Shown: positions 31,214 through 56,975 of the stretch, in pieces
Numbering within the stretch: the first letter of the stretch is position 1
Layout: each line of letters opens with the position of its first letter
NCBI RefSeq assembly: GCF_054482525.1
Contig: NZ_CM137006.1
Reading direction: 5' to 3' (one strand)
Length of the DNA: 64,000 nucleotides
The notes under the pieces: model-generated
Seen by the model: the letters and a program-made list of their open reading frames with translations, nothing else
Told to the model about the DNA's origin: nothing
Database searches by the model: none
Position numbers and translations under genes: made by a program

Positions 31214-31231
31214 ATCAGCGCAGTTGTGCAG

Positions 31232-33182: not shown

Positions 33183-33440
33183 TTTACCGTAAGAACCGAC
33201 CGCCGTATGTATCCATTAAGCCAGTATTGGTAACGTAGGTGCCCACCTTTTCAAACTGGTGGGCGCCTGTTATGGAGCAAAAACATTATCCGCAGAACCC
33301 CGCAGATCATTTTCAAATGAGTTAAACTTCAAATGGTTAAACTGGTTTTGCAACCAGGAGCCTCTGTTGCCCGTATTGCCCGGGAACACGATATCAATGA
33401 TAACCTCCTGTTCAAATGGCTCAGACTCTGGCAGAACGTA
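33183..33440 (+). mobile_element. IS66-family left-end remnant with frameshifted tnpA (orf1) start
   Basis: Terminal sequence begins gtaag...; downstream frame encodes MVKLVLQPGASVARIAREHDINDNLLFKWLRLWQ; same ~75-bp end repeated at 53082..53158. Confidence 0.4.
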
Positions 33441-34296
33441 AGGTAAAGGGAGATGAAAAAGGCAATAGCAGAACTGAGTGACAGTGAAACCATTCTGGCG
33501 TACAGGGTTGGATGGTGAAACTGATAAAAAACCCCCTCTGAAATTCTGTCAGAGGGGCTAGTCAATAAGGGAATAATATTCAACATGAAGATGTCTTCTG
33601 GGAATGTTTATATAGCAAATGCTTTCACTCCGGTAATTAATTTCCGTGATTAACTGCTTTCGATCAATAAAGGAATTGCAAAAGTGTGATCTTGTTCACG
33701 ACATCGTGGATAATAATATGCCTGATGTCTGAATCCGGAAACAGTGCTCTGGCGGGTTTCATGTGAAGTTGACGGATAAAAAATCCGCACGACCAGACAG
33801 ACGTGCGGTTTACGAAATTCGTAACAAGAGGCTTTTCTACGGATCACGTGGTGCGTGCCACGTGAAATTTTTGTAGCGCAAAATGTGCAATGTGTAAATA
33901 CAAGGAAGGAAAAAAGTTAAATTGGTAGAAGTCCATGCCTGCCACATGTACGTCTGCATTCCTCGTTTTGAACAGAATTCTCACCAGACATCGTGAATTT
34001 CTCATTCAATCATCAGAGATATTAACCAGGATTTTTATTGTTTTGTGATATCAGCAGTGCAGGTATACAGACGTTAAAGTAATCAGGTTTATTATAACCA
34101 CCTTTACAAAGTTGTATATGTTTATAATTTAATGATTTTAATGCCAGTCGTTTTCTGCTGCTTAAATTGAGGTCGCATATTATACACAATAATATTCCTG
34201 GCATTATTAAATTAATAAAAGAGGATTCTTATCACTGTATTTTTGCTCCGCACTACCGTTCTGGCTGGTGAAGTAATAATACAGGAGAATAACAGA

Positions 34297-34863
34297 ATGC
34301 TTAAAAGACGTGATGCTTTTTTAAAGAAAAGCGCGCTGGCAGTGAGTGTGGCCCTGCTGCTCTCGGCTCAGGCTCAGGCTGTTTTGACAGGGCCTGTTGA
34401 TGCTAATTCTTCCAGCTTACTGATTGGAGAAAACTCTTTTATTACGAATTCAACTGGTACAGCTAATAACACTTTCCTTTTGGGAGGTGGCGCTTTTAAC
34501 ATGGATTCACCAGGAAGTCTTCAGTTTGGCTCTTTTTCGGGAGTGTATAATTCTCCACACAGTGTCACCCTGGGAAGGGATGCCGGTCAGGCTGAGTCAA
34601 AATATGGTGTTGCCATAGGTAAGAGCGCTGAGGTACTTAATTCACAGCAGAGTGTTGCTATTGGGGGATGGGCTGGAATAGAAAATTCTTCAGGCTCTGT
34701 AGCTCTGGGCCATGGCTCACAGGTGTCGGGAGAAAATAACGTGGTATCTGTTGGTGCCGGACCTGAGGGATATGGAGAGAGTGTCAAAGGAGCACCGGAA
34801 ACCCACTCTATTGTAAACAAGACATTTTTATCTTTTATATTCAATGGCTTATTTTCCTGCTAA
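34297..34863 (+). pseudogene. N-terminal fragment of a trimeric autotransporter (YadA-like) adhesin
   Basis: Signal peptide MLKRRDAFLKKSALAVSVALLLSAQAQA then head-type repeats (SVAIGGWAGIENSSGSVALGHGSQVSGENNVVSVGAG); ORF ends abruptly at the resistance-module junction. Confidence 0.55.
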
Positions 34864-35103
34864 TTGGTAATACCATGAAAAATACCATGCTCAGAAAAGG
34901 CTTAACAATATTTTGAAAAATTGCCTACTGAGCGCTGCCGCACAGCTCCATAGGCCGCTTTCCTGGCTTTGCTTCCAGATGTATGCTATTCTGCTCCTGC
35001 AGCTAATGGATCACCGCAAACAGGTTACTCGCCTGGGGATTCCCTTTCGACCCGAGCATCCGTATGAGACTCATGCTCGATTATTATTATTATAGAAGCC
35101 CCC

Positions 35104-35919
35104 ATGAATAAATCGCTCATCATTTTCGGCATCGTCAACATAACCTCGGACAGTTTCTCCGATGGAGGCCGGTATCTGGCGCCAGACGCAGCCATTGCGC
35201 AGGCGCGTAAGCTGATGGCCGAGGGGGCAGATGTGATCGACCTCGGTCCGGCATCCAGCAATCCCGACGCCGCGCCTGTTTCGTCCGACACAGAAATCGC
35301 GCGTATCGCGCCGGTGCTGGACGCGCTCAAGGCAGATGGCATTCCCGTCTCGCTCGACAGTTATCAACCCGCGACGCAAGCCTATGCCTTGTCGCGTGGT
35401 GTGGCCTATCTCAATGATATTCGCGGTTTTCCAGACGCTGCGTTCTATCCGCAATTGGCGAAATCATCTGCCAAACTCGTCGTTATGCATTCGGTGCAAG
35501 ACGGGCAGGCAGATCGGCGCGAGGCACCCGCTGGCGACATCATGGATCACATTGCGGCGTTCTTTGACGCGCGCATCGCGGCGCTGACGGGAGCCGGTAT
35601 CAAACGCAACCGCCTTGTCCTTGATCCCGGCATGGGGTTTTTTCTGGGGGCTGCTCCCGAAACCTCGCTCTCGGTGCTGGCGCGGTTCGATGAATTGCGG
35701 CTGCGCTTCGATTTGCCGGTGCTTCTGTCTGTTTCGCGCAAATCCTTTCTGCGCGCGCTCACAGGCCGTGGTCCGGGGGATGTCGGGGCCGCGACACTCG
35801 CTGCAGAGCTTGCCGCCGCCGCAGGTGGAGCTGACTTCATCCGCACACACGAGCCGCGCCCCTTGCGCGACGGGCTGGCGGTATTGGCGGCGCTGAAAGA
35901 AACCGCAAGAATTCGTTAA
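35104..35919 (+). CDS. sul2: sulfonamide-resistant dihydropteroate synthase Sul2
   Basis: 271-aa product matches Sul2 as I recall it. Confidence 0.95.
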   Translation: MNKSLIIFGIVNITSDSFSDGGRYLAPDAAIAQARKLMAEGADVIDLGPASSNPDAAPVSSDTEIARIAPVLDALKADGIPVSLDSYQPATQAYALSRGVAYLNDIRGFPDAAFYPQLAKSSAKLVVMHSVQDGQADRREAPAGDIMDHIAAFFDARIAALTGAGIKRNRLVLDPGMGFFLGAAPETSLSVLARFDELRLRFDLPVLLSVSRKSFLRALTGRGPGDVGAATLAAELAAAAGGADFIRTHEPRPLRDGLAVLAALKETARIR

Positions 35920-35979
35920 CTGCACATTCGGGATATTTCTCTATATTCGCGCTTCATCAGAAAACTGAAGGAACCTCCA

Positions 35980-36783
35980 TTGAATCGAACTAATATTTTT
36001 TTTGGTGAATCGCATTCTGACTGGTTGCCTGTCAGAGGCGGAGAATCTGGTGATTTTGTTTTTCGACGTGGTGACGGGCATGCCTTCGCGAAAATCGCAC
36101 CTGCTTCCCGCCGCGGTGAGCTCGCTGGAGAGCGTGACCGCCTCATTTGGCTCAAAGGTCGAGGTGTGGCTTGCCCCGAGGTCATCAACTGGCAGGAGGA
36201 ACAGGAGGGTGCATGCTTGGTGATAACGGCAATTCCGGGAGTACCGGCGGCTGATCTGTCTGGAGCGGATTTGCTCAAAGCGTGGCCGTCAATGGGGCAG
36301 CAACTTGGCGCTGTTCACAGCCTATCGGTTGATCAATGTCCGTTTGAGCGCAGGCTGTCGCGAATGTTCGGACGCGCCGTTGATGTGGTGTCCCGCAATG
36401 CCGTCAATCCCGACTTCTTACCGGACGAGGACAAGAGTACGCCGCAGCTCGATCTTTTGGCTCGTGTCGAACGAGAGCTACCGGTGCGGCTCGACCAAGA
36501 GCGCACCGATATGGTTGTTTGCCATGGTGATCCCTGCATGCCGAACTTCATGGTGGACCCTAAAACTCTTCAATGCACGGGTCTGATCGACCTTGGGCGG
36601 CTCGGAACAGCAGATCGCTATGCCGATTTGGCACTCATGATTGCTAACGCCGAAGAGAACTGGGCAGCGCCAGATGAAGCAGAGCGCGCCTTCGCTGTCC
36701 TATTCAATGTATTGGGGATCGAAGCCCCCGACCGCGAACGCCTTGCCTTCTATCTGCGATTGGACCCTCTGACTTGGGGTTGA
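35980..36783 (+). CDS. strA: aminoglycoside 3''-phosphotransferase APH(3'')-Ib (StrA); TTG start
   Basis: 267-aa product matches StrA; first codon is ttg at 35980. Confidence 0.95.
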   Translation: MNRTNIFFGESHSDWLPVRGGESGDFVFRRGDGHAFAKIAPASRRGELAGERDRLIWLKGRGVACPEVINWQEEQEGACLVITAIPGVPAADLSGADLLKAWPSMGQQLGAVHSLSVDQCPFERRLSRMFGRAVDVVSRNAVNPDFLPDEDKSTPQLDLLARVERELPVRLDQERTDMVVCHGDPCMPNFMVDPKTLQCTGLIDLGRLGTADRYADLALMIANAEENWAAPDEAERAFAVLFNVLGIEAPDRERLAFYLRLDPLTWG

Positions 36784-37619
36784 TGTTCATGCCGCCTGTT
36801 TTTCCTGCTCATTGGCACGTTTCGCAACCTGTTCTCATTGCGGACACCTTTTCCAGCCTCGTTTGGAAAGTTTCATTGCCAGACGGGACTCCTGCAATCG
36901 TCAAGGGATTGAAACCTATAGAAGACATTGCTGATGAACTGCGCGGGGCCGACTATCTGGTATGGCGCAATGGGAGGGGAGCAGTCCGGTTGCTCGGTCG
37001 TGAGAACAATCTGATGTTGCTCGAATATGCCGGGGAGCGAATGCTCTCTCACATCGTTGCCGAGCACGGCGACTACCAGGCGACCGAAATTGCAGCGGAA
37101 CTAATGGCGAAGCTGTATGCCGCATCTGAGGAACCCCTGCCTTCTGCCCTTCTCCCGATCCGGGATCGCTTTGCAGCTTTGTTTCAGCGGGCGCGCGATG
37201 ATCAAAACGCAGGTTGTCAAACTGACTACGTCCACGCGGCGATTATAGCCGATCAAATGATGAGCAATGCCTCGGAACTGCGTGGGCTACATGGCGATCT
37301 GCATCATGAAAACATCATGTTCTCCAGTCGCGGCTGGCTGGTGATAGATCCCGTCGGTCTGGTCGGTGAAGTGGGCTTTGGCGCCGCCAATATGTTCAAC
37401 GATCCGGCTGACAGAGACGACCTTTGTCTCGATCCTAGACGCATTGCACAGATGGCGGACGCATTCTCTCGTGCGCTGGACGTCGATCCGCGTCGCCTGC
37501 TCGACCAGGCGTACGCTTATGGGTGCCTTTCCGCAGCTTGGAACGCGGATGGAGAAGAGGAGCAACGCGATCTAGCTATCGCGGCCGCGATCAAGCAGGT
37601 GCGACAGACGTCATACTAG
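36783..37619 (+). CDS. strB: aminoglycoside 6-phosphotransferase APH(6)-Id (StrB)
   Basis: MFMPPVFPAHWHVSQPVLIADTF...; start overlaps strA stop (tgATG). Confidence 0.95.
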   Translation: MFMPPVFPAHWHVSQPVLIADTFSSLVWKVSLPDGTPAIVKGLKPIEDIADELRGADYLVWRNGRGAVRLLGRENNLMLLEYAGERMLSHIVAEHGDYQATEIAAELMAKLYAASEEPLPSALLPIRDRFAALFQRARDDQNAGCQTDYVHAAIIADQMMSNASELRGLHGDLHHENIMFSSRGWLVIDPVGLVGEVGFGAANMFNDPADRDDLCLDPRRIAQMADAFSRALDVDPRRLLDQAYAYGCLSAAWNADGEEEQRDLAIAAAIKQVRQTSY

Positions 37620-38198
37620 ATATCAAGCGACTTCTCCTATCCCCTGGGAACACATCAATCTCACCGGAGAATATCGCTGGCCAAAGCCTTAGCGTAGGAT
37701 TCCGCCCCTTCCCGCAAACGACCCCTGGAAGCCCCGTAGCGACGCGGAGAGGGGCGAGACAAGCCAAGGGCGCAGGCTCGATGCGCAGCACGACATAGCC
37801 GGTTCTCGCAAGGACGAGAATTTCCCTGCGGTGCCCCTCAAGTGTCAATGAAAGTTTCCAACGCGAGCCATTCGCGAGAGCCTTGAGTCCACGCTAGATC
37901 TATCTCATCTGCGCAAGGCAGAACGTGAAGACGGCCGCCCTGGACCTCGCCCGCGAGCGCCAGGCGCACGAGGCCGGCGCGCGGACCCGCGCCACGGCCC
38001 ACGAGCGGACGCCGCAGCAGGAGCGCCAGAAGGCCGCCAGAGAGGCCGAGCGCGGCCGTGAGGCTTGGACGCTAGGGCAGGGCATGAAAAAGCCCGTAGC
38101 GGGCTGCTACGGGCGTCTGACGCGGTGGAAAGGGGGAGGGGATGTTGTCTACATGGCTCTGCTGTAGTGAGTGGGTTGCGCTCCGGCAGCGGTCCTGA

Positions 38199-38849
38199 TC
38201 AATCGTCACCCTTTCTCGGTCCTTCAACGTTCCTGACAACGAGCCTCCTTTTCGCCAATCCATCGACAATCACCGCGAGTCCCTGCTCGAACGCTGCGTC
38301 CGGATCGGCTTCGTCGAAGGCGTCTATCGCGGCCCGCAACAGCGGCGAGAGCGGAGCCTGTTCAACGGTGCCGCCGCGCTCGCCGGCATCGCTGTCGCCG
38401 GCCTGCTCCTCAAGCACGGCCCCAACAGTGAAGTAGCTGATTGTCATCAGCGCATTGACGGCGTCCCCGGCCGAAAAACCCGCCTCGCAGAGGAAGCGAA
38501 GCTGCGCGTCGGCCGTTTCCATCTGCGGTGCGCCCGGTCGCGTGCCGGCATGGATGCGCGCGCCATCGCGGTAGGCGAGCAGCGCCTGCCTGAAGCTGCG
38601 GGCATTCCCGATCAGAAATGAGCGCCAGTCGTCGTCGGCTCTCGGCACCGAATGCGTATGATTCTCCGCCAGCATGGCTTCGGCCAGTGCGTCGAGCAGC
38701 GCCCGCTTGTTCCTGAAGTGCCAGTAAAGCGCCGGCTGCTGAACCCCCAACCGTTCCGCCAGTTTGCGTGTCGTCAGACCGTCTACGCCGACCTCGTTCA
38801 ACAGGTCCAGGGCGGCACGGATCACTGTATTCGGCTGCAACTTTGTCAT
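38199..38849 (-). CDS. tetR: tetracycline repressor TetR, class A
   Basis: MTKLQPNTVIRAALDLLNEVGVDGLTTRKLAERLGVQQPALYWHF...; start at internal Met of ORF 38199..38876. Confidence 0.9.
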   Translation of the reverse strand: MTKLQPNTVIRAALDLLNEVGVDGLTTRKLAERLGVQQPALYWHFRNKRALLDALAEAMLAENHTHSVPRADDDWRSFLIGNARSFRQALLAYRDGARIHAGTRPGAPQMETADAQLRFLCEAGFSAGDAVNALMTISYFTVGAVLEEQAGDSDAGERGGTVEQAPLSPLLRAAIDAFDEADPDAAFEQGLAVIVDGLAKRRLVVRNVEGPRKGDD

Positions 38850-38854
38850 GCTTG

Positions 38855-38907
38855 ACACTTTATCACTGATAAACATAATATGTCCACCAACTTATCAGTG
38901 ATAAAGA
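38855..38907. promoter_or_regulatory. tet operator palindromes in the tetR-tetA divergent promoter region
   Basis: actttatcactgataaaca and aacttatcagtgataaaga palindromes between the divergent genes. Confidence 0.7.
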
Positions 38908-38954
38908 ATCCGCGCGTTCAATCGGACCAGCGGAGGCTGGTCCGGAGGCCAGAC

Positions 38955-40154
38955 GTGAAACCCAACAGACCCCTGATCGTAATTCTGAGCACTGTCGCGC
39001 TCGACGCTGTCGGCATCGGCCTGATTATGCCGGTGCTGCCGGGCCTCCTGCGCGATCTGGTTCACTCGAACGACGTCACCGCCCACTATGGCATTCTGCT
39101 GGCGCTGTATGCGTTGATGCAATTTGCCTGCGCACCTGTGCTGGGCGCGCTGTCGGATCGTTTCGGGCGGCGGCCGGTCTTGCTCGTCTCGCTGGCCGGC
39201 GCTGCTGTCGACTACGCCATCATGGCGACGACGCCTTTCCTTTGGGTTCTCTATATCGGGCGGATCGTGGCCGGCATCACCGGGGCGACTGGGGCGGTAG
39301 CCGGCGCTTATATTGCCGATATCACTGATGGCGATGAGCGCGCGCGGCACTTCGGCTTCATGAGCGCCTGTTTCGGGTTCGGGATGGTCGCGGGACCTGT
39401 GCTCGGTGGGCTGATGGGCGGTTTCTCCCCCCACGCTCCGTTCTTCGCCGCGGCAGCCTTGAACGGCCTCAATTTCCTGACGGGCTGTTTCCTTTTGCCG
39501 GAGTCGCACAAAGGCGAACGCCGGCCGTTACGCCGGGAGGCTCTCAACCCGCTCGCTTCGTTCCGGTGGGCCCGGGGCATGACCGTCGTCGCCGCCCTGA
39601 TGGCGGTCTTCTTCATCATGCAACTTGTCGGACAGGTGCCGGCCGCGCTTTGGGTCATTTTCGGCGAGGATCGCTTTCACTGGGACGCGACCACGATCGG
39701 CATTTCGCTTGCCGCATTTGGCATTCTGCATTCACTCGCCCAGGCAATGATCACCGGCCCTGTAGCCGCCCGGCTCGGCGAAAGGCGGGCACTCATGCTC
39801 GGAATGATTGCCGACGGCACAGGCTACATCCTGCTTGCCTTCGCGACACGGGGATGGATGGCGTTCCCGATCATGGTCCTGCTTGCTTCGGGTGGCATCG
39901 GAATGCCGGCGCTGCAAGCAATGTTGTCCAGGCAGGTGGATGAGGAACGTCAGGGGCAGCTGCAAGGCTCACTGGCGGCGCTCACCAGCCTGACCTCGAT
40001 CGTCGGACCCCTCCTCTTCACGGCGATCTATGCGGCTTCTATAACAACGTGGAACGGGTGGGCATGGATTGCAGGCGCTGCCCTCTACTTGCTCTGCCTG
40101 CCGGCGCTGCGTCGCGGGCTTTGGAGAAATTCTTCAAATTCCCGTTGCACATAG
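38955..40154 (+). CDS. tetA: tetracycline efflux MFS transporter TetA, class A (GTG start)
   Basis: VKPNRPLIVILSTVALDAVGIGLIMPVLPGLL...; GGAGG 6 nt upstream of GTG at 38955; C-terminal tail may differ from the Tn1721 form. Confidence 0.85.
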   Translation: MKPNRPLIVILSTVALDAVGIGLIMPVLPGLLRDLVHSNDVTAHYGILLALYALMQFACAPVLGALSDRFGRRPVLLVSLAGAAVDYAIMATTPFLWVLYIGRIVAGITGATGAVAGAYIADITDGDERARHFGFMSACFGFGMVAGPVLGGLMGGFSPHAPFFAAAALNGLNFLTGCFLLPESHKGERRPLRREALNPLASFRWARGMTVVAALMAVFFIMQLVGQVPAALWVIFGEDRFHWDATTIGISLAAFGILHSLAQAMITGPVAARLGERRALMLGMIADGTGYILLAFATRGWMAFPIMVLLASGGIGMPALQAMLSRQVDEERQGQLQGSLAALTSLTSIVGPLLFTAIYAASITTWNGWAWIAGAALYLLCLPALRRGLWRNSSNSRCT

Positions 40155-40420
40155 CCCGGCAATTCCTTTCCCTGCTCTGCCATAAGCGCAGCGAATGCCG
40201 GGTAATACTCGTCAACGATCTGATAGAGAAGGGTTTGCTCGGGTCGGTGGCTCTGGTAACGACCAGTATCCCGATCCCGGCTGGCCGTCCTGGCCGCCAC
40301 ATGAGGCATGTTCCGCGTCCTTGCAATACTGTGTTTACATACAGTCTATCGCTTAGCGGAAAGTTCTTTTACCCTCAGCCGAAATGCCTGCCGTTGCTAG
40401 ACATTGCCAGCCAGTGCCCG

Positions 40421-40726
40421 TCACTCCGCGGTCTTCACTGCGTGATCGAGTTGATCGACACCCGCCGTGACACGCTCCATGAAGTGCCTGCCTGCGTCTG
40501 TTAGCCGAACGCCCCGCGCATGGCGCTCAAATAGCAGGACACCAAGGTTATCCTCCAGCGCTTTCACACGCGCGCTGACGCTCGACTGGCTGATACCAAG
40601 TGCCTTGGCCGCATGCCGAAAATTCAGATGCTCGGCGACGGCGATGAACTGAACAAGGGAAATGAGCGGTATCCTGCCAGACAGGATACCGACATTCACG
40701 AGGTTTCGATGGTTAGTGCGCCGCAT
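40421..40726 (-). pseudogene. truncated LysR-family regulator gene associated with floR
   Basis: 101-aa ORF with LysR-type HTH (HLNFRHAAKALGISQSSVSARVKALE) but lacking the effector domain. Confidence 0.7.
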
Positions 40727-40753
40727 CGGAGCGGGCCTGCTACCAGTCGTCGG

Positions 40754-43069: not shown

Positions 43070-43099
43070 TTTGATTGGTATCGTTGGCCTTCAGGCTCG

Positions 43100-44705: not shown

Positions 44706-44911
44706 ATGATGGCATTCCGGAGTTATCTTACAGATAAAAAGAAGTCCTTATCAGAAAGCAGACAGGTTATATCAGTATTCTGTCGATAAATAACCTGCCC
44801 TGAAAATACGAGAATATTATTTGTATTGATCTGGTTATTAAAGGTAATCGGGTCATTTTAAATTGCCAGATATCTCTGGTGTGTTCAGTAATGAAAAAGA
44901 GGTTGTTATTT

Positions 44912-45180: not shown

Positions 45181-45189
45181 TCAAGCACT

Positions 45190-45235
45190 GATGAATCCCC
45201 TAATGATTTTTATCAAAATCATTAGGGGATTCATC
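45190..45235. repeat. perfect 21-bp inverted repeat (hairpin) at the papA truncation junction
   Basis: gatgaatcccctaatgatttt / tatc / aaaatcattaggggattcatc; no flanking T-run. Confidence 0.7.
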
Positions 45236-45583
45236 AGGACTCAGTATAAATCCAAGACAAAATCCCCCCGTGAATGCATTTAATAAAGACTTTAATGTTC
45301 TGTTAAAGGTGCGGATATAAAATGCATAAATAAAAGAAAGAGATCCGGTGATTATACCGGTGCAAAAATATGTTGTCCATTCAGGTACCGTATTTTGTAA
45401 AACAGTATAATGAGATATAGCGGATGCCCACAACATATACCAGCACAAACCACCTGTAATAAGATATGTTATTGCTGTGGAAAACCATTTCCTGTATTTA
45501 TTTTCAGGGTAATTGTTCTTGCCCATCAACGCATTTCCAGAATATTTAAAATAACCTGTCACCGAAACGGAATAAAGGCGCAA
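45200..45583 (-). CDS. hypothetical small membrane protein (127 aa)
   Basis: Hydrophobic segments (LITGGLCWYMLWASAI; GIITGSLSFIYAFYI; GGFCLGFIL); 42 bp downstream of the dGTPase gene on the same strand. Confidence 0.4.
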   Translation of the reverse strand: MRLYSVSVTGYFKYSGNALMGKNNYPENKYRKWFSTAITYLITGGLCWYMLWASAISHYTVLQNTVPEWTTYFCTGIITGSLSFIYAFYIRTFNRTLKSLLNAFTGGFCLGFILSPDESPNDFDKNH

Positions 45584-45625
45584 TAACCATAACGGGAAAA
45601 TATGCGCCTCTGGTAATCGGCAGTG

Positions 45626-46858
45626 TTACTTCAGACAGTGAGTTTCCCATTCCTTGACTGCAAATGTATCCATCATACCTGAAATATAGTCAACCACTGC
45701 TCGTTTTTTGCTGATTTCAAATATACAGGAATCTGGTTGGGGTAAGGTGAATTTAAGTTCAGGAGGCAGAAATTTATAATTCTCTCCTTCATTGTAAAAG
45801 TCATATAAATCCCTGATTATTTTATTTCCCCTGAACTCATAGGTGAGGATATTACGTTTTCGCATGATGACTTTAAAGAGAAGTTTTTTGAGTCCTTCGG
45901 ATAACGCATTCAGTTTCCCGAACCCCAGTTCCTGAAAACCATTCAGGTTCGTTACTACAGAAATATCTGCAACGAGGCGATTGACAATATTTGAAGTTAA
46001 CTCCTTGCGGAATATGATGGCAAATTCTTCTGAGGTTTTCAGTAAGTTAGCCTGAAAAGCGGTGTTTCTCGACTGAGTAACGATTTCCCTGAACTGTTCC
46101 CTCGCTCCCCGGAATTCGTCAGAAATCTGAAACTCATATTCAATATCTTCAATCGTGACCATGTTCCTGCTAAGGGCATCTTCCAGGTCATGCGCGGCGT
46201 AGGCAATCTCATCCGCGAGATCCATTATCTGCGCATCAATCGTTTTCTCTCCGGGATTCAGATCGAGCTGATTTTCAGCAAGCAGGTTAATGTAAAAATA
46301 GTAATCATCATCATAAATGAACTTGCCGGCAGTAGCTGCAGCGCGGGGGATGGGATACTTAACAACCGAAAGTAAACTACGGTGAGTCAGATTTAATCCG
46401 TTGCAGTATGAAAATTTCTTCTCCAGTTTTCTCAGGATACGTAGCGCCTGTGCATTACCTTCATAGCCGCCGATTTCTTCAGACAGTTCATTAAGCAGTT
46501 TTTCACCGGAATGACCGAAAGGAGGATTTCCGATGTCATGCGCCAGCGCTGCCAGTTCAACCACCACCGGGTTAATCAGTTTGAGGTCTGACGCGATACT
46601 TCGGGCGATCTGAGCAACCTCAAGACTGTGCGTTAATCTGTTTCTGTTGAATTTTTCAGGATCAATTTCAAAAAGTTGCATCTTTCCCTGCAGCCTGCGA
46701 AATGATGATGAATACAGAATACGCGCGTAATCCCGTTGATAATTATCCCGGCTTCTTGTTTCACCATCGGGGGACGGGTGCTCTCTGGTATCAGCAAGCG
46801 CACTGATAAGTTTTTGTTCCTGCTCTTGCGCAAATTCTTTTAATTCATTGCAGTACAT
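45626..46858 (-). CDS. HD-domain dGTPase-like deoxynucleoside triphosphate triphosphohydrolase
   Basis: Motifs YQRDYARILYSSSFRRLQGKMQLF, RLTHSLEVAQIARSIA, LAHDIGNPPFGHSGE typical of Dgt-family enzymes; start at second Met (RBS-like AAGGAAG upstream); AT-rich. Confidence 0.75.
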   Translation of the reverse strand: MYCNELKEFAQEQEQKLISALADTREHPSPDGETRSRDNYQRDYARILYSSSFRRLQGKMQLFEIDPEKFNRNRLTHSLEVAQIARSIASDLKLINPVVVELAALAHDIGNPPFGHSGEKLLNELSEEIGGYEGNAQALRILRKLEKKFSYCNGLNLTHRSLLSVVKYPIPRAAATAGKFIYDDDYYFYINLLAENQLDLNPGEKTIDAQIMDLADEIAYAAHDLEDALSRNMVTIEDIEYEFQISDEFRGAREQFREIVTQSRNTAFQANLLKTSEEFAIIFRKELTSNIVNRLVADISVVTNLNGFQELGFGKLNALSEGLKKLLFKVIMRKRNILTYEFRGNKIIRDLYDFYNEGENYKFLPPELKFTLPQPDSCIFEISKKRAVVDYISGMMDTFAVKEWETHCLK

Positions 46859-47008
46859 ATTTCTTCCTTTCTGGAGCATGTTACCAAATCAGAATACCGG
46901 ATGAACAAAACTGGTGGCTACATCCTGTAGGGATTATGTATTAGTAAGCTCTGGCCATTAGTGCCATTTCAGGTTATGTGATCCTACCCACGTAATATGG
47001 ACACAGGC

Positions 47009-47875
47009 CTAAGCGAGGTTCTTGTTTTCAAATTGTTCCGGACTGAGGCCGCCACACCAACTGTGCCGCCGCCACCGATTGTAATCACATTCGATATAAT
47101 TAAACACCGTTGCCCGCATTATTTCCCGGCTGATAAAGTGTTCTCCATGGATACATTCCACTTTCAGCGAATGAAAGAAGCTTTCCACGCAGGCATTATC
47201 GTAGCAGCAACCTTTTGCGCTCATACTTCCACGCAGATTATGCCGCTTCAGTTGCGCCTGATAATCTGCTGAACAGTACTGGCCTCCACGGTCCGTGTGA
47301 ACGATAACGTTCCGGGGCCTCTTACGCCGCCACAGCGCCATCTGCAGGGCATCGCAGGCCAGTTGCGCCGTCATGCGTGGCGACATTGACCAGCCAATAA
47401 CGGCACGTGACCACAGGTCAATGACCACTGCCAGATACAGCCAGCCTTCATCTGTACGTAAGTACGTGATGTCTCCTGCCCACTTCTGGTTCGGGCCACT
47501 GGCGTAAAAATCCTGCTCCAACAGATTTTCTGACACAGGCAGGCCGTGTGCGCGGTAGCTGACCGGGCTGAACTTCCGGGAGGCCTTTGCCCTCAGTCCC
47601 TGACGGCGCAGGCTTGCCGCCACGGTTTTTACGTTAAAGGGGTAACCCTGAGCACGCAGTTCATCCGTCAGGCGTGGGGCACCGTAACGCTGTTTTGACC
47701 GGGTAAAAGCCGCGAGGACAACGCTGTCGCAGTGTTGGCGGAACTGCTGACGCGTGCTTATCCTTGTCCGCCGCTGACACCACGTATACCAGCCGCTGCG
47801 GGCCACCCGGAGCACGCGGCACATTGCTTTGATGCTGAACTCAGCCTGATGTTTTTCAATAAAGACATACTTCAT
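47009..47875 (-). CDS. insF: IS3 transposase OrfB
   Basis: 288-aa product matches IS3 OrfB as recalled. Confidence 0.9.
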
Positions 47876-48170
47876 TTCAGACGATTCGCAAAGTATGTCG
47901 CGGCCTTTTGGAGGATAGCCAGTTCCTCTGCCTGCTCCGCCAGTTGCCGCTTCAGGCAGGCATTTTCAGCGGCCAGTTCACTTTCACGCTCTGACGAACT
48001 CATTTGTTGCTGCAGTTTGCTGCGCCACGCATAGAGCTGTGATTCATACAGGCTGAGTTCACGGGCTGCGGCAGCAACACCGATGCGTTCAGCAAGTTTC
48101 AGGGCTTCACTGAGAAATTCAGGCGAATGCTGTTTACGGGGTTTTTACTGGTTGATACTGTTTTTGTCAT
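47871..48170 (-). pseudogene. insE: IS3 orfA with a 1-bp deletion in a poly-A run near codon 9
   Basis: Translation from ATG at 48170 gives MTKTVSTSKNPVNSIRLNFSVKP*; element is 1257 rather than 1258 bp; no minus-strand ORF >=60 aa in the track here. Confidence 0.6.
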
Positions 48171-48337
48171 GTGAGTCACCTCTGACTGAGAGTTTACTCA
48201 CTTAGCCGCGTGTCCACTATTGCTGGGTAAGATCAAGTCTTACTTACCCTGTGAACCATGTTGATATTGATACTATATTGACTATATGCCATACAGGTGG
48301 TAATGATTAGTTACTACCATACAGGAAAAGGTAGAAA

Positions 48338-49318
48338 ATGACTCTTTTGGTAACGGCTGAGTGTGTTGACGATCTGATAAACGATGTTCATCAAGCTATC
48401 CTAGCGGATGGACTCAGTAACGATCCTACAAAAGGATCAACTCTAGAGATTCTTGGTGCCTATCTTGTCCTTACCGACCCCCGCCGAAGAATAAGTAGAA
48501 CAGAATCCCGAGGAAAACTAATTAGTTGCTTAGGTGAATTTCTGTGGTATCTCTCAGCTCAGAACGATCTTGAGTTTATAAAACACTTCATACCACGTTA
48601 CGCTGAATCCGCTGAGTCAGATGGGAAAATACATGGTGGTTACGGGCCACGGTTGTTTAATATGCGTGGTTTATATAATCAGCTAAAAAATGTTATCAAC
48701 CTTTTGCAGGAGAAAAAACCTACCAGACGTGCAGTAATACAGCTTTTCGATGCCTCAGACTTGGTGCCCTCAAAAACTGAACAGCGAGAATACGTAGATA
48801 TTCCTTGTACAATATCTATGCAGTTTATTGTCAGATGTGAAGAGCTGCATCTATTTGTTTGTATGCGTTCTAACGATGCCTTTATGGGGCTGCCTCATGA
48901 TGTATTTGCGTTCACGATGCTACAGGAATTAGTTGCCCGCTTGATAGGATGCGAATTGGGTCACTATCATCACTTTGTATCCAGCCTACATCTCTATAAA
49001 AATGATTTAGAAAAAGTGAAGGCTCTTCAGAAAGAGGGGTTCATGAGCACCCTACCAGTCATGGGATCGATGCCTGAAATGCATTCCTTAGATGATATCT
49101 TACCCCTGCTTGAGGCAGAAAAAGCTCTTCGAGAGAATAAGGAATTTGATATTGACACTACTTCCTTGAATGACTACTGGAAGGATTTATTGCGTATATT
49201 AAAAATCCACTTTTTGTTACGTTCACATACACCCAACCACAAAGGACTAGCCTTCCAAGAGTTGGCTGCAATGAAAAATCAGGAATATCGGTTTATTTTT
49301 GAAGGAAGACTACAATGA
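48338..49318 (+). CDS. thymidylate synthase-fold protein (ThyA / dNMP hydroxymethylase family) with ~90-aa C-terminal extension
   Basis: Aligns by eye to ThyA: GSTLEILGAYLVL, ISCLGEFLWYL, LYNQLKNVINLLQEKKPTRRAVIQLFDASDL, DIPCTISMQFIV (Cys at catalytic position), CMRSNDAFMGLPHDVFAF, HLYKNDL. Confidence 0.7.
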   Translation: MTLLVTAECVDDLINDVHQAILADGLSNDPTKGSTLEILGAYLVLTDPRRRISRTESRGKLISCLGEFLWYLSAQNDLEFIKHFIPRYAESAESDGKIHGGYGPRLFNMRGLYNQLKNVINLLQEKKPTRRAVIQLFDASDLVPSKTEQREYVDIPCTISMQFIVRCEELHLFVCMRSNDAFMGLPHDVFAFTMLQELVARLIGCELGHYHHFVSSLHLYKNDLEKVKALQKEGFMSTLPVMGSMPEMHSLDDILPLLEAEKALRENKEFDIDTTSLNDYWKDLLRILKIHFLLRSHTPNHKGLAFQELAAMKNQEYRFIFEGRLQ

Positions 49319-50259
49319 AAAGACATAATCAAATCAGTCAGCTGGTTAGTAATTTGCAAAATTTTAGCCGCAATGAACACAACCTAAATGGCCTAAGTTC
49401 TCCTGCCTGCTTTGATGTTTTAGCCTGTCAGATTATCGACAGTATACGTCGTATACGCTATGTGGAAACTCTTGCATTACGGACCGATTATATGACTCCG
49501 TTACGAAAAGAGCCGAATTCTGATGTTTTTGATCCTCTCCGCGCTGCCTGCCTTTATCTTCGTGACAACAATTACGATGAAGCCTGCTGGCTGGTTTTCC
49601 TTGCCACACATTTCGGCAAGAGTAACAAAACCGGCTGGATTTTGTGTCGAGATATATACAGTGGACTCGGTACACAAACGTGGACATGGGATACGATAAC
49701 TGATGACTTTGCTGCTTTTGAACAATGGTTCGCCAGCGTCTCTGATGAGTTGACAGCTAACAGTAGCCTAAGACAATATGGTAACCATCGGAAATATGAA
49801 ACGAAGAAATATCACTCTCGTCGTTCAATACCTGCGGTTTTTCGCTCTTACATCGGATTCATTGGTGCTACACACAGTCATGAGGCTAGGTTTGCAGAGG
49901 CCAAGAGCTTTTCATCTTCACCAGAATCTTTATTCGAACTATTGTATTCAGGGCTAAATGCCGTGATCTCATTTGGACGAACCGCAAAATTTGATTACCT
50001 AACTATGCTCAAGAAAACGGGACTTCTGGATGTAGAGCCGGGTCATGCTTTTCTGAATGGAGCAACCGGGCCCCTTCAAGGAAGCCGGCTACTTTTCAGC
50101 AATAGCCGGACTGCTGGTGACACAATAGACGTATTGAATGAAAAACTAGCTGACCTTGCGGCAATTATTCCTGCACCCTACTTGAGAATGCAGGTTATTG
50201 AAGATGCGTTGTGCAACTGGCAGAAATCACCTGACCGTTATGTCTATTTCGGCGGCTGA
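49315..50259 (+). CDS. uncharacterised protein co-operonic with the TS-fold gene
   Basis: 314-aa ORF overlapping upstream gene by 4 bp (ATGA); no motif I can assign. Confidence 0.5.
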   Translation: MKRHNQISQLVSNLQNFSRNEHNLNGLSSPACFDVLACQIIDSIRRIRYVETLALRTDYMTPLRKEPNSDVFDPLRAACLYLRDNNYDEACWLVFLATHFGKSNKTGWILCRDIYSGLGTQTWTWDTITDDFAAFEQWFASVSDELTANSSLRQYGNHRKYETKKYHSRRSIPAVFRSYIGFIGATHSHEARFAEAKSFSSSPESLFELLYSGLNAVISFGRTAKFDYLTMLKKTGLLDVEPGHAFLNGATGPLQGSRLLFSNSRTAGDTIDVLNEKLADLAAIIPAPYLRMQVIEDALCNWQKSPDRYVYFGG

Positions 50260-50261
50260 TA

Positions 50262-51344
50262 TCAGACGATATCTTCTTTACGGAATCTCACTTTAAACCG
50301 ATTAAGGTGAGAAAAAGGTATATTACCTTCATGCTGCAAATATCCCAGTACGATCCCTTTGGATACCCCCATTTTCCTAGCTAACCGGATGATCTCTTTC
50401 CAATGCCGGACACCATAGCGACTAAGTTGCTGCCGGTATTCTTCTGGGATAAGAACATCAACGGCAAATTTATCTGCTTCCTTTTCCTCTTCCGACGAAA
50501 GACTATCTTTACCTTCTACGCGAACTCGGACAGCTTCATGCAAGATGAGATGCCCAATCTCATGAAACAGCGTAAACCAAAAATGGTCATCGGTCAGATA
50601 ACGGAAACTCATGACTAGGGTTGCGCGATCTGGTGTAAAAAAGCAGGTAGCACCACTTGCCCGACATCCCTTTGGCGTTGGCAACACAACGAGAGAAACT
50701 CCAGCAGTGGCGAGAAGGTCGCGAATGTAAGGGATAAAAATCCTCATGTCGGGTTCATTTGTAGCTTTGCGCAGTTCTGGCAACAATGCTATCAGCCCCT
50801 CTTTATCCCATACAGCACAGTTTTGGTTTGAGGTAAGTTGTGCAGCCCTAGTCAGCCACACCAAATCGGCCATAGGCTCGGTTGCCAGATTAAGAGATTT
50901 ACGAAAAGCGACCAAAGGAGCATCTGACTGAATTTTATAAAAAAAATCATTGACGGAATTTATTCCGAAAAACGATAGGCAGTGCTGGAATTTACTTTCC
51001 CGAGTTGTAGTTTTGGGGATCCAACCAAACTCCATCATATCACGTACAGGCAATGATTCGAGCCAATCATTATTCACTTTCTCGAGGTATCCAATTTGCT
51101 GGCGATAAGCGACTTCGCGCTTGATCCAGAAGTCTGTCGATACGTTGAATAACTCCTCAAGCTTACAAGCCAGAGACTCATTGAGTCGGATTTTTCCTTC
51201 AAGAAGTTGCTGACCCCGGATAAGAGACAATCCAATCCTCTTACTCAGTTCTTCACCAGAAAGCCCATGTTCATCCATTAGATCTATAATTGTATCACCG
51301 GGTGGAGATACCCAGTCAGGCTGGAAGTCCTGCGTAACTATCAT
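50262..51344 (-). CDS. XRE-family HTH fused to ImmA/IrrE-type zinc metallopeptidase (HigA-like antitoxin/regulator)
   Basis: N-terminal HTH (IIDLMDEHGLSGEELSKRIGLSLIRGQQLLEG), C-terminal HEXXH (FTLFHEIGHLILHE); overlaps upstream small gene by 4 bp. Confidence 0.65.
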   Translation of the reverse strand: MIVTQDFQPDWVSPPGDTIIDLMDEHGLSGEELSKRIGLSLIRGQQLLEGKIRLNESLACKLEELFNVSTDFWIKREVAYRQQIGYLEKVNNDWLESLPVRDMMEFGWIPKTTTRESKFQHCLSFFGINSVNDFFYKIQSDAPLVAFRKSLNLATEPMADLVWLTRAAQLTSNQNCAVWDKEGLIALLPELRKATNEPDMRIFIPYIRDLLATAGVSLVVLPTPKGCRASGATCFFTPDRATLVMSFRYLTDDHFWFTLFHEIGHLILHEAVRVRVEGKDSLSSEEEKEADKFAVDVLIPEEYRQQLSRYGVRHWKEIIRLARKMGVSKGIVLGYLQHEGNIPFSHLNRFKVRFRKEDIV

Positions 51345-51667
51345 TTCACGTCACCTATGAACACTAACCGTATCCGGCTAACTCGGGACCAGTTAATTGT
51401 ATTATCTTGATTTTTGGGCTGAACTGTATTCCCACAGACAAATCCCATTTTTACATCACCGAGAATGGTAATTGTAATACACTCTTCCCCATCCTCAAAG
51501 CAGACCTCCGGCGAACCTACGGGCAACAGTAATATGTTGTCTGTCACGGAAAGATCGGAAAGTCGCGAGCGTAGTCTTGATGCCACTTTGTCACCAAAGA
51601 TCTCATTTGCCTCATGCATACTCTCGCAAATAGTCCTTAACTTCTTGCTTTGAAAGGTAATGAACAA
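51341..51667 (-). CDS. HigB-like (killer-protein family) type II toxin candidate
   Basis: 108 aa; N-terminal KKLRTICESMHEANEIFGDKVASRLRSRLSDL resembles HigB-family pattern; toxin-first gene order. Confidence 0.5.
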   Translation of the reverse strand: MFITFQSKKLRTICESMHEANEIFGDKVASRLRSRLSDLSVTDNILLLPVGSPEVCFEDGEECITITILGDVKMGFVCGNTVQPKNQDNTINWSRVSRIRLVFIGDVK

Positions 51668-51810
51668 AATTATCCACTTTTATTTTTCTTGGTTGCTACG
51701 TTTATAGCAAACTCAACGCTCATTCACAAAATGAGATGTAGCGAATTAATGGACTCTGCACATATTAAATGTTAATGATGGACTTAAAATCACGGATTCG
51801 TAAGGGAAAC

Positions 51811-52077
51811 ATGAAAGGTAAACATCAAGACACTAAAGCCCTGTCTGACGTGCTAGCGGAAATGCAACGGCAGGATGCCAAATGGGGGGCAGACCGTAAT
51901 CAAGATCCTTTTATCTGGGGAGCGATTCTCGGAGAAGAGGTGGGAGAATTTCATCAGGCTGTCCTCCATGATCGTTTTGGTGGTAAAGCAGCCGGTACCA
52001 GTAGGGAGGAAGCAGTACAAATTGCTGCTGTTGCACTGCAAATCATCGAATATTATGATCGCGTAATAGATCGATAA
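51811..52077 (+). CDS. small MazG-like NTP pyrophosphohydrolase-like protein (tentative)
   Basis: AILGEEVGEFHQAV and REEAVQIAAVALQIIEYY resemble the MazG EExGE helix pair; start at internal Met of ORF 51769..52077. Confidence 0.35.
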   Translation: MKGKHQDTKALSDVLAEMQRQDAKWGADRNQDPFIWGAILGEEVGEFHQAVLHDRFGGKAAGTSREEAVQIAAVALQIIEYYDRVIDR

Positions 52078-52261
52078 ATTAGAATTAATCAACTAAGAGT
52101 CTTTTACACGCGAAGATGAACTCTGGCAGCCATCTACCTTCGTGGGCCTGTAGAACACATCTAATTGCAATACTCCCAGTTAATCACTAACCAGCCTCTC
52201 CAGTAAGGCTGGTCGATTAGGTTTAATTAAACAGATATAACAAGCAATTCACTTGGTATTA

Positions 52262-52335
52262 CGCGGTTCACACAGACTTCTTTAGTTGTGTCATATCCTA
52301 TAACTTTCAGAGGCTTATTTACGGTATTATCACGA
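52262..52335 (-). pseudogene. internal fragment (~75 bp) of a P4-type integrase gene
   Basis: ggttcacacagacttctttagttgtgtcatatcctataactttcagaggcttatttacggtatt parallels int at ~11095-11170; flanked by an ISL3-type end. Confidence 0.5.
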
Positions 52336-52930
52336 ACGGTGCAAAAGTGGCTCTTCCGCAACCTAGGTGGAGATTTTCATGCCAGTGGACTCATTACCCT
52401 CTGCCTAAGTAGTTCAAATCCGGCTCGACCATACATCAGATGTTTCAGCATCTTCAGGCGATTTACATGACCTTCGACAACACCGTTACTCCAGCGGCTG
52501 CTGGTTGCCTCACATATAGCCGCAGCATCAGCTTCCATCCCCGCAGCCACGCGCCGAAGTTCTGCTGAACCGTTTTCGTGGACTCGAGTGAACCAACTGC
52601 TTAGATTTGATTTATTTGGGGTTTTCAGAATACGGTAGAACTCAAGTACTAGTTGCTGCGCTATTTTCAGCGCCGGTTCTTTTTCACACATCAGACTAAT
52701 AAATCGGGAAGCATAATTTTCTTCACCCCTGATTATTATCCAGGGCATCAACCAGCGGCTTACCCGGGACACTGAAGGAAGTCTGGCGGCAGTAGTAACT
52801 GGTGGGTTCCAGCCTTTACGCCATTTGGCAACAGCATCCCTGACGATGGTTTCACTGCCTGTAACCCCCGGGCCACCATTTCCCGCCATATCCAGTCGCT
52901 GGTGTGCTGAATTGGTCATGTATGAAGGAA
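52336..52930 (-). mobile_element. ISL3-family IS remnant (3' part of transposase gene and one terminal repeat)
   Basis: ORF 52377..52919 ends with ISL3-type C-terminus WSNGVVEGHVNRLKMLKHLMYGRAGFELLRQRVM; terminal sequence ggctcttccgcaa at ~52336. Confidence 0.55.
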
Positions 52931-53081
52931 GATATCAATGGTGGTATCTCCCTTTCAAAAGGAAGTGAAAAGCTTGATGCCTGCTGCCAGGCAATCAATA
53001 TTACGTGCTTTTAACGACTATCCTAAATGGTGGTAGCTATGCAGAGCTCCCGGTCCTAGCGCTGGGAGCTTATCGCTTATC

Positions 53082-53158
53082 TTTACCGTAAGCGTAAACG
53101 GACCGCCGTATGTAGCCATTAAACCAGTATTGGTAACGTAGATACCCACCTTTTCAAA
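53082..53158 (+). mobile_element. isolated IS66-family terminal repeat (~75 bp), same end and orientation as 33183..33255
   Basis: tttaccgtaagcgtaaacggaccgccgtatgtagccattaaaccagtattggtaacgtagatacccaccttttcaaa, ~90% identical to the 33.2-kb copy. Confidence 0.4.
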
Positions 53159-56912: not shown

Positions 56913-56975
56913 TACGCACATGACAAGCCCCGGCAGCGGGGCTTTTGTATTTAAAACAGGATATAAAAGCTAACA

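Follow-up and report, generated by a model that had tools for sequence, protein, structure and literature searches.

The 64,000-nucleotide stretch of DNA that we analyzed, called the window here, contains a 20-kb interval (33183-53158) that carries a plasmid-type resistance module, a pap remnant, a dGTPase-family gene and a group of genes that includes a thymidylate-synthase-like gene, interspersed with pieces of several insertion sequences (Table 1). The annotation of the interval was taken from the RefSeq W2-5 chromosome, which is 100% identical. A first-pass annotation had placed a resistance module, pap remnants, a dGTPase, a thymidylate-synthase-like operon and a toxin-antitoxin pair between two direct repeats. 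All of these were recovered except the last, since the W2-5 annotation has no toxin-antitoxin pair inside the interval; the candidate genes behind that claim are those for the XRE-HTH/M78-peptidase protein and the MazG-like protein.

Table 1. Features in and around the 20-kb interval, with positions in the window
Feature	Position	Strand	Remarks
IS1 pseudogene copy	32129-32891	-	From annotation; replaces LacI-PTS-transketolase genes of GPEC657-type island
Transketolase-family gene 3' fragment and spacer	32892-33182	+	Native left flank of relic A
TTTACC flank hexamer	33183-33188	+	Directly outside relic A; flank DNA, not IS
Relic A	33189-33443	+	IRL and 5' part of tnpA; repeated part 33183-33255
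yadA-like adhesin gene, 5' part	34297-34797	+	Cut by resistance module
Plasmid-type resistance module	34798-43767		sul2, aph(3'')-Ib, aph(6)-Id, tetR/tet(A), floR, ISCR2/IS91 fragments
pap remnant	43690-45187		papI, papB, 5' part of papA; from annotation
Tn10 scar, two IS10 ends	45188-45237		50 bp, read directly; seam between two island types
dGTPase-family gene region	45238-46976 (gene 45626-46858)	-	HD and HD_assoc domains
IS3-family pseudogene copy	46977-48230 (annotated 47009-48170)	-	Right boundary approximate
Thymidylate-synthase-like gene, aGPT-Pplase3/ADDT gene, XRE-HTH/M78 regulator (- strand), MazG-like gene	48338-52077		
ISL3-family transposase fragment	52330-52893	-	Thousands of genomes have ISL3 copies about 94% identical
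CDI orphan-module gene 3' end and terminator-like hairpin	52894-53087	+	Native left flank of relic B
Relic B	53088-53157	+	First 70 nt of IS682-type left end; repeated part 53082-53158
hsdR upstream region and hsdR, type I R-M system	53159-56912	+	Right flank of relic B

Homology to GPEC657 breaks at 32128 and restarts at 32892, so the corresponding DNA (L008 14715-19998) is missing from the window. The yadA-like gene is intact in GPEC657 (1,359 bp); in the window, plasmid-type homology begins at 34798, and this yadA'/module junction is shared with strain 98206. The resistance module was 99.9% identical to many plasmids over positions 2799-11768 of the query. In 98206 the remaining pap operon lies after a resistance region, and a full IS10/Tn10 occupies the same left junction as the Tn10 scar. 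The 9-mers flanking the scar differ (GGTCAAGCA and GACTCAGTA), and homology to E06 begins at its right edge, position 45238; the dGTPase region is E06-type island DNA, with 98.2% identity to E06 L009 3949-5694. Relative to E06, the IS3-family copy adjoins a loss of cdiB-arc-VENN (L009 5695-15677, absent from the window). The genes at 48338-52077 gave the Pfam domains PF00303, PF18746/PF18724, and PF06114 with PF01381. In STEC434 and YSP8-1, the sequence at 52894-53087 follows a cdiA/orphan array and has an IS682-type end at the same site.

We then aligned the two repeats that bracket the interval. With MAFFT, 33183-33255 and 53082-53158 were identical in 68 of 77 aligned columns and differed by 5 substitutions and one 4-bp indel (CGTA, missing from copy A). 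Both copies lie on the + strand and are therefore direct repeats, so the pair of about 75 bp, about 90% identical and in the same orientation, is as first described. A repeat search of the window recovered the pair as family D2 (33194-33255 and 53097-53158; 92% identity, spacing 19,903); only three other direct-repeat families in the 64 kb reach 40 nt. By chance, the window would contain about 1.6e-19 ungapped 62-nt matches with 57 or more identities. The runs of exact identity between the copies measured 11, 3, 14, 7, 18, 1 and 14 nt.

Both copies aligned to the left end of the annotated IS66-like element IS682, for which we took the O26 RM8426 copy as reference (L003 2992-5524; 2,533 bp, with the 8-bp duplication TCTTTCTC), and the label "IS66-family end" given to them previously was thus correct. 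The start of IS682, GTAAGCG, corresponds to window positions 33189 and 53088. It can be taken as the terminus of the element because of the 8-bp duplication in O26 and the different flank in E7476, and GTAAGCG-type IRs have been described for IS66-family members (PMC12888890). Relic A is 255 nt long, including 185 bp of tnpA, and is 93.7% identical to IS682 positions 10-260 and 95.2% identical to a copy annotated as ISEc23. It has kept GTAAG, with a 4-bp deletion at positions 6-9 of the IR; its tnpA is frameshifted and truncated at 33443, and is listed by RefSeq as a partial transposase with a frameshift. Over IS682 positions 1-70, relic B shows 94.3% identity. Its IR start is intact (GTAAGCGTAAAC...), and it ends at IS position 70, where the hairpin after the IR is severed in its loop and hsdR upstream DNA takes over. 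The two also represent different sequence variants: besides the deletion, relic A has CAAACTGG, as in ISEc23-type copies, while relic B has GATACCC. The terminal sequence that marks the IS66 family, a GTAAGCG IR with homology to the end of an annotated member, was found in both relics, and each is the left end (IRL) of an element of the IS682/ISEc23 group. The likeness to that group (93 to 95% identity to the left terminal region, the GTAAGCG terminus and, in relic A, continuation into tnpA) ends there, however, as the relics amount to 255 and 70 nt. Neither has the two inverted ends and the tnpA-tnpB-tnpC genes of an intact IS66-family element.

The only matches to the 2,533-bp IS682 in a BLAST search of the window were 33194-33443 and 53088-53157, and no right end, tnpB or tnpC was found. 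An 18-nt IRR-like match at 34780-34797, adjoining the start of the module at 34798, was rejected as chance: its E value is 5.8, the yadA-like reading frame runs through it, and a right end would have to face the other way. An IS66 tnpA fragment beside cdiA in E06 and 98206, considered as the missing part of the relic B element, had no similarity to IS682 at 1e-5. An Rfam scan (gathering thresholds) of 32000-54500 and a tRNA scan of the window returned no matches, so the repeats are neither a known RNA nor pieces of att sites or tRNA. Nor does the interval resemble an integrase-type genomic island with att repeats, as the repeats consist of IS sequence, there are no tRNA genes in the window and no integrase is annotated in 33183-53158.

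It had also been suggested that the repeats could mobilize the whole segment. As far as transposition is concerned, this did not hold up. Each relic has kept one IS end, and transposition is excluded because both are left ends that point the same way and lack a right end and a transposase to go with them; the pair of inverted ends with a cognate transposase that makes a composite transposon was not found in the window. An IS66-mobilizable composite unit might instead be moved in trans, by transposase from intact IS682 or ISEc23 copies elsewhere in the genome, an idea favored by the intact IR start of relic B and by the frequency of intact IS66-family elements in E. coli. Transposition needs inverted ends, however, and the direct orientation of the two left ends effectively refutes this explanation. 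The damaged IR of relic A and the lack of a right end, tnpB and tnpC in the window also count against it. Moreover, no copy of the interval bounded by these ends was found at another location, and plasmid pNDM5_LS003, which has window positions 24000-34801 and 40429-47023, crosses relic A and ends elsewhere. We give such a unit virtually no chance of being real.

Other genomes carry the two relics apart from each other. Relic A was found at 99.2% identity in GPEC657, flanked by a transketolase operon and a yadA-like gene that are both intact, and at least 80% of its context (32894-34797) was present in 269 genomes. The truncation junction of relic B and the hsdR upstream region were identical in E7476, which has another left flank, and also occurred in E06; at least 80% of the relic B context (51300-53900) was present in 217 genomes. 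GPEC657 has relic A without the context of relic B, and E06 and E7476 have relic B without that of relic A, while the complete 22.5-kb arrangement was limited to 123 genomes, from many hosts. At the CDI site of relic B, YSP8-1 and STEC434 have a longer, older-looking version of the insertion, which is probably ancestral. Relic A is native to an island type with the order transketolase, IS, yadA, and relic B to one with the order CDI, IS, type I R-M.

The two relics look like independent insertions, but the hexamer TTTACC lies directly outside both (at 53082-53087 for relic B), a coincidence with odds of about 1 in 4,096 under random insertion. This sharing would be accounted for if a single insertion, or a segmental duplication taking in the IS end and its flank, had given rise to both copies. 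The flanks are unrelated beyond these 6 nt, however, and each copy occurs with its own flank in other island types. The difference in IS variant between relics A and B argues against common origin as well. Similar 8-mers border other IS682-group insertions (TCTTTCTC, GTTTTCTC, GGTCTTTC and TTATTTAC), as a target preference would predict, and the left-end flanks of this group are often T-rich and end in C. We compared 14 flanks, and a genome scan with the IRL pattern gave 7 loci, too few for statistics. On the 14 flanks, we attribute the shared TTTACC to target preference rather than to common descent, and we regard a single origin of the two copies as very improbable.

In the window, homology does not break at either relic. 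It runs straight over both of them, in a GPEC657-type tract (32892-34374) across relic A and an E06-type tract (46977-58610) across relic B, and the interval is cut further by IS1, ISCR2, IS3 and ISL3. The 20-kb interval is chimeric, made up of two island types, and is not a discrete unit. The seam between the two is the Tn10 scar. Nearly precise excision of Tn10 leaves a remnant of 50 bp. The process was reportedly described by Ross, Swan & Kleckner in 1979 and by Foster et al. in 1981, both cited in bioRxiv 10.1101/2023.06.07.543989. The sequence at 45188-45237 matches such a remnant in being exactly 50 bp long and made of two IS10 outer ends, but it differs in that its flanking 9-mers are no target duplication. 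The Tn10 that left the scar had therefore already joined two unrelated sequences.

These observations suggest a history in which the relic A element would have inserted long ago in one island type, with a transketolase operon on one side and a yadA-like gene on the other, and the relic B element, in a separate old event, after a CDI orphan module in the other. Relic B would later have been trimmed to 70 nt and fused to the hsdR upstream region. The two island types may then have become joined at the Tn10 scar, with deletions next to IS1 and IS3 and a resistance module of the ISCR2 type shaping the locus further. This order of events is inferred from a few comparator genomes, none of them a direct parent (backbone identities were 92 to 96%). 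Such a joining of islands would explain why two direct left ends lie 19.9 kb apart, and the bracketed interval would consequently be an accident of assembly rather than an element. We consider it likely that the relics are inert leftovers of two separate old insertions in a chimeric island, and that deletion between them is rare and has not become fixed.

Recombination between the repeats had been predicted to delete the interval. The junction left by such a deletion would consist of the left flank of relic A, one repeat and the right flank of relic B. We searched for it with a 1,202-nt query and a tight 373-nt query and found it in none of 5,426 complete E. coli genomes, the best coverage anywhere being 56% and 60%, respectively. 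There was thus no repeat-bounded deletion polymorphism among these genomes, even though the whole arrangement is present in 123 genomes. MEPS values have been quoted as 23 to 27 bp for RecA/RecBC and 44 to 90 bp for RecF (PMC12074656), and the longest exact run in the relics, 18 nt, falls below both. With 71 to 77 nt, about 92% identity and no exact run above 18 nt, the relics are probably poor recombination substrates. Loss of the interval could in principle occur, but it is rare and is fixed in no sequenced genome. Absence from finished genomes does not give a deletion rate, however. The interval holds selected resistance genes, and deletants may therefore arise and then be lost.

The reciprocal joint (left flank of B, B-type repeat, right flank of A) was found in one genome, that of strain 98206 (one assembly, GCF_045037705.1, in which record positions 2982279-2982655 cover the joint), and on none of 72,556 plasmids. 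The repeat in 98206 is B-type at 6 of 6 diagnostic positions and is followed by the right flank of A, including both the tnpA truncation junction of relic A and the yadA'/module junction. A 15.7-kb CDI/R-M-type tract thus stops exactly at relic B and continues as relic A's right flank, an in-register hybrid joint of the kind left by repeat-mediated recombination. Because the switch from B to A falls within the last 14-nt block of identity, the relics probably served as the site of a homology-guided crossover at least once. Judged from this one assembly, relic-to-relic recombination has occurred at least once; the mechanism is our reading of the joint. Each flank is single-copy in 98206, cdiB-arc-VENN, absent from the window, is kept, and the pheV backbone is of the GPEC657 type, all of which points to exchange between island variants. 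Two further hits to the reciprocal-junction query, H292 and H293 (92.3%), were rejected as recombinants, as they represent the longer and older B insertion with its own tnpA, which is not derived from A.

The view of the relics as substrates for homologous recombination therefore survives in part: the B/A joint of 98206 supports it, whereas exact runs of at most 18 nt and the unseen deletion junction do not. A stronger version would have the relics delete or circularize the 20-kb interval often enough to matter biologically. Topologically, direct repeats are expected to yield deletion or excision, and the B-type/A-type recombinant in 98206 is in the register of a circle or duplication joint. 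There is also a possible parallel in the 13-kb H47 island of E. coli, whose flanking imperfect direct repeats recombine in K12 independently of RecA, giving low but PCR-detectable excision (PMC5426353). Like the window's interval, H47 is a chromosomal block of more than 10 kb between imperfect direct repeats with short blocks of identity and without a dedicated recombinase. In contrast to the deletion product sought here, however, its excision products have been detected experimentally, and H47 is one functional island, whereas the repeats in the window are IS debris around a chimera of two types. The intact interval in many hosts, the empty searches for the deletion junction in genomes and for the reciprocal joint on plasmids, and the 8% divergence plus indel between copies whose longest exact run lies below the 23 to 27 bp of MEPS all weigh against an active role. 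The 98206 island, too, more plausibly arose by exchange between two island variants than from the two copies in the window. We therefore consider recombination at a meaningful rate improbable.

Recombination at repeated IS copies or fragments is known as portable homology, and its usual examples are full-length, near-identical IS of 0.8 to 1.5 kb. In homology-facilitated recombination, a long homology and a short one together anchor the event. The 98206 joint resembles both in that its 15.7-kb tract stops exactly inside a relic and in register, but it differs from recombination between IS copies in that the relics share just 71 to 77 nt at about 92% identity and are not full-length elements. 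The relics can thus act as rare homology anchors. It is possible, although we are doubtful, that the diverged 70-nt IS682 relics are a reusable crossover point for swapping modules between tkt-yadA-pap and CDI-TS-R-M islands. If so, the sul2/floR/tet(A) block could be moved onto new island backbones, as in 98206, and IS debris far below MEPS would shape island mosaicism.

The first-pass observation of the repeats is confirmed and its interpretation partly supported. The pair is biologically ordinary, and beyond bookkeeping its importance is small. The bracketing repeats are not the determinant of mobility; the real seams are IS1, ISCR2, the Tn10 scar and IS3. The analysis is of use for tracing the spread of the chromosomal sul2-strAB-tet(A)-floR block in a widely distributed E. 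coli lineage. The joint in 98206 bears on models of island mosaicism, and although the principle is not new, it is a small natural case of very short, imperfect IS debris anchoring an exchange between island variants.

The first-pass annotation had described two direct copies of an IS66-family end bracketing about 20 kb, and the pair was present as claimed: the copies are identical at 68 of 77 alignment columns, with 5 substitutions and one 4-bp indel, both lie on the plus strand, and a match this good is expected by chance about 1e-19 times in 64 kb. A repeat finder independently returned the same pair (92% over 62 nt, spacing 19,903), one of only four direct-repeat families of at least 40 nt in the window. 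The family label also held, both copies matching the left end of annotated IS682. The reference IS682, intact and annotated in E. coli O26 RM8426, is 2,533 bp long, starts GTAAGCGTAAAC and is flanked there by an 8-bp duplication, TCTTTCTC. The right-hand copy (relic B) matches its positions 1-70 at 94.3% identity and the left-hand copy (relic A) its positions 10-260 at 93.7%. Relic A has lost four IR bases, its tnpA stub is frameshifted, and it is slightly closer to ISEc23-annotated copies (95.2%) than to IS682. The window held no right end, tnpB or tnpC of IS682. By these comparisons, both relics are left ends of an IS66-family element of the IS682/ISEc23 group.

The noted repeat extends a few bases beyond its IS part because TTTACC occupies the six bases outside the IS terminus in both flanks. 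In a small sample of 14 distinct left-end flanks from the group (including the O26 RM8426 locus L003 and loci L010, L012 and L022), several were TTTACC-like (TCTTTACC, GTTTTACC, TCTTTCTC, GTTTTCTC, GGTCTTTC and TTATTTAC), most ended in C, and the 8-nt flanks were often T-rich. This suggests that the group has a preference for T-rich, C-ending 8-nt target sites, which on these 14 flanks would best explain the common TTTACC. A hairpin, GGTGCCCACC-loop-GGTGGGCGCC, lies between the IS682-type IR and tnpA. Relic B breaks off within the loop of this hairpin, where it joins the DNA upstream of hsdR, a junction kept in unrelated contexts (E7476 and E06).

At least 269 genomes carry relic A together with both of its flanks, the left one being the 3' end of a transketolase-family gene. 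The order in GPEC657, an intact LacI-PTS-transketolase operon, an A-type relic and an intact 1,359-bp yadA-like gene, looks like the undisturbed context of relic A; the GPEC657 relic has the same 4-bp deletion and tnpA truncation point. Relic B is present in at least 217 genomes along with its right truncation junction and the region upstream of hsdR. Its left flank is wholly different in E7476, and in E06 it sits in an island without the transketolase/yadA part. In the window, that flank comes from a CDI orphan-module gene, of which it is the 3' end; this gene is also present in STEC434 and YSP8-1, and in both an IS682-type end occupies the identical site. The YSP8-1 end runs on into its own, differently diverged tnpA, and we take this form to be an older, longer state of the B insertion. 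At diagnostic positions A and B differ, matching different IS variants. Because of the separate contexts in other genomes and the different IS variants, we conclude that the relics represent independent insertions. Upstream of hsdR, a 147-bp stretch of E7476 and STS63-1-E (L005 5164-5311; L006) that contains a short hairpin, ACGACACGACCTGTCGT, is missing from the window, possibly reflecting a small insertion element or a deletion.

The repeats had been proposed to be able to delete or mobilise the whole segment. We searched 5,426 complete E. coli genomes for the deletion junction (A left flank, repeat, B right flank) with queries of 1,202 nt (megablast) and 373 nt (blastn). The junction was absent from all of them, maximum query coverage being 56% and 60%, and every match was to one parental half only; no strain in this set lacked exactly the interval. 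The full arrangement was kept in 123 genomes, from water, humans, poultry, dogs, sheep, ducks and a panda. Exact-identity runs between the relics are 11, 3, 14, 7, 18, 1 and 14 nt, and the MEPS quoted for E. coli are 23-27 bp for RecA/RecBC and 44-90 bp for RecA/RecF (PMC12074656). Because deletion variants were absent and the exact runs are short, both of which the first-pass annotation had named as counting against it, the specific deletion prediction fails. Transposition of the interval is excluded because of how the ends are oriented and because only one kind of end is present. A direct precedent for the proposed excision of a large block is the H47 island of E. coli, where imperfect direct repeats excise >10 kb without a dedicated recombinase (PMC5426353).

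Compared with the islands of GPEC657, E06 and 98206, the island in the window is a chimera of GPEC657-type and E06-type parts, and the bracketed 20 kb is neither a unit nor an element. The left part is GPEC657-type, extending from the shared backbone through yadA'; an IS1 stands in place of 5.3 kb of LacI-PTS-transketolase (GPEC657 L008 14715-19998), and a plasmid-type resistance module cuts yadA and abuts papI. Where the pap remnant ends, a 50-bp seam consists of two IS10 outer ends, CTGATGAATCCCCTAATGATTTTTATCAAAATCATTAGGGGATTCATCAG. Since the 9-mers on either side differ, the seam joins unrelated DNA, the pap remnant and the E06-type island. It looks like a scar of Tn10 "nearly precise excision", which classically leaves a matching 50-bp remnant; at that left junction, in papA, 98206 carries a full IS10/Tn10. 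In the E06-type right part, the dGTPase gene is followed by an IS3 copy, the stretch from TS up to and including relic B, and lastly the type I R-M system. Beside the IS3 copy, 10 kb of E06 (L009 5695-15677) is gone, namely, cdiB, an arginine-deiminase cluster and a CdiA VENN fragment (cdiB-arc-VENN). The losses at the IS1 and the IS3 are IS-adjacent deletions. Homology tracts pass unbroken across both relics, so neither is a breakpoint in the window. The only documented plasmid movement of the region is in the IncI plasmid pNDM5_LS003 (NZ_OP290546.1, L004), which carries window positions 24000-34801 and 40429-47023 at 99.6-100% identity but without sul2-strAB-tet(A), which is deleted, adjoining aac(3)-IIe and blaNDM-5. 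Its segment spans relic A and ends elsewhere; a conjugative plasmid has therefore picked up part of the island, and the limits of that part do not correspond to the IS682 relics.

An excised circle, a tandem duplication or an exchange between islands would each produce the reciprocal joint, in which the repeat has B's left flank before it and A's right flank after it. It was absent from 72,556 plasmids, and the query was covered in three genomes. Two of these, YSP8-1 and 2017-19-1CC (92.3%), were rejected as recombinants, since theirs is the older, longer state of the B insertion. The remaining genome, 98206 (99.7%; NZ_CP173544.1), is a true hybrid, joined in register at L017 20151-20227. On its left are B's CDI flank and then B-type bases at 6/6 diagnostic positions; the switch to A's right flank follows the last 14-nt identical block, CCCACCTTTTCAAA, and the right side has the tnpA truncation junction unique to A and, as in the window, the yadA'/resistance-module junction. 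Beyond the joint come yadA', sul2 and a pap remnant, then Tn10 and more resistance genes, and finally the remainder of the pap operon. The island is located at pheV and has a GPEC657-type ireA backbone, a 15.7-kb tract 99.975% identical to E06 stops exactly at the relic, each flank is single-copy in the genome, and cdiB-arc-VENN is kept. Because of these four features, we read 98206 as an exchange between two island variants by one crossover at the relics; derivation from the window's own two copies is disfavoured by the single flanks and the retained cdiB-arc-VENN. The crossover could have occurred by RecA-dependent homeologous recombination or, alternatively, by short-homology recombination anchored by longer homology elsewhere. 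As substrates for recombination, then, such relics gave a hybrid joint once in the sampled population, and the predicted deletion or mobilisation of the interval was not seen.

All of these features fall within known kinds, with nothing outside them. The relics are pieces of elements from a well-known IS family, and IS copies as portable homology are textbook. Overall, the repeat is confirmed, its interpretation is supported in part, and its significance is low.

The gene content of the interval was taken from the RefSeq annotation of the E. coli W2-5 chromosome (NZ_CP032989.1), which, like many other chromosomes, is 100% identical to the window. The resistance module, pap remnants, dGTPase gene and TS-like operon ascribed to the interval are all annotated, whereas the toxin-antitoxin pair is not: none was found inside it by annotation or Pfam, and the annotated pairs of the window, ParDE and CbtA/CbeA, lie outside.

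Features of the interval and its surroundings (window coordinates)
Feature	Position	Source or remark
Integrase gene	10857-12122	
ParDE, CbtA/CbeA	about 12586-15690	annotated
IS1	32129-32891	
Relic A, repeated part	33183-33255 (+)	TTTACC 33183-33188; hairpin 33239-33267
Relic A, IS part	33189-33443 (+)	
IS66-type tnpA stub		RefSeq annotation
Adhesin gene, truncated		RefSeq annotation
Plasmid-type resistance module	34798-43767	
sul2, aph(3'')-Ib, aph(6)-Id, tetR/tet(A), floR + ISCR2/IS91 pieces		RefSeq annotation
papI, papB, papA'		RefSeq annotation
pap remnant, right end	45187	
IS10 seam	45188-45237	
Start of E06-type sequence	45238	
dGTPase-family gene	45626-46858	RefSeq annotation
IS3 pseudogene		RefSeq annotation
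Loss beside IS3 copy	46977	
E06-type tract	46977-58610	99.76% to E06
Thymidylate-synthase-like gene (PF00303)	within 48338-52077	
aGPT-Pplase3/ADDT gene (PF18746/PF18724)	within 48338-52077	
XRE-HTH/M78 regulator	within 48338-52077	
MazG-like gene	within 48338-52077	
ISL3 fragment		RefSeq annotation
Integrase-gene fragment	52271-52340	vs 11104-11174
Relic B left flank	52894-53087	
Relic B, repeated part	53082-53158 (+)	TTTACC 53082-53087; hairpin 53140-53158
Relic B, IS part	53088-53157 (+)	
Site of missing 147 bp	~53250/53251	
Type I R-M system	from 53499	
Integrase-gene fragment	62518-62678	vs 10875-11035

The enzymes of the TS-like/aGPT-Pplase3/XRE-HTH/MazG cluster are of the phage-type thymidine-hypermodification kind, here located in an island of the chromosome, next to genes for nucleotide targeting and restriction (the dGTPase gene and the type I R-M system). 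Conservation of the cluster extends to E06 and 98206. Two short fragments are about 75-80% identical to the integrase gene, one beside the ISL3 piece and the other close to where the R-M region ends on the right, and their positions hint at old island boundaries.
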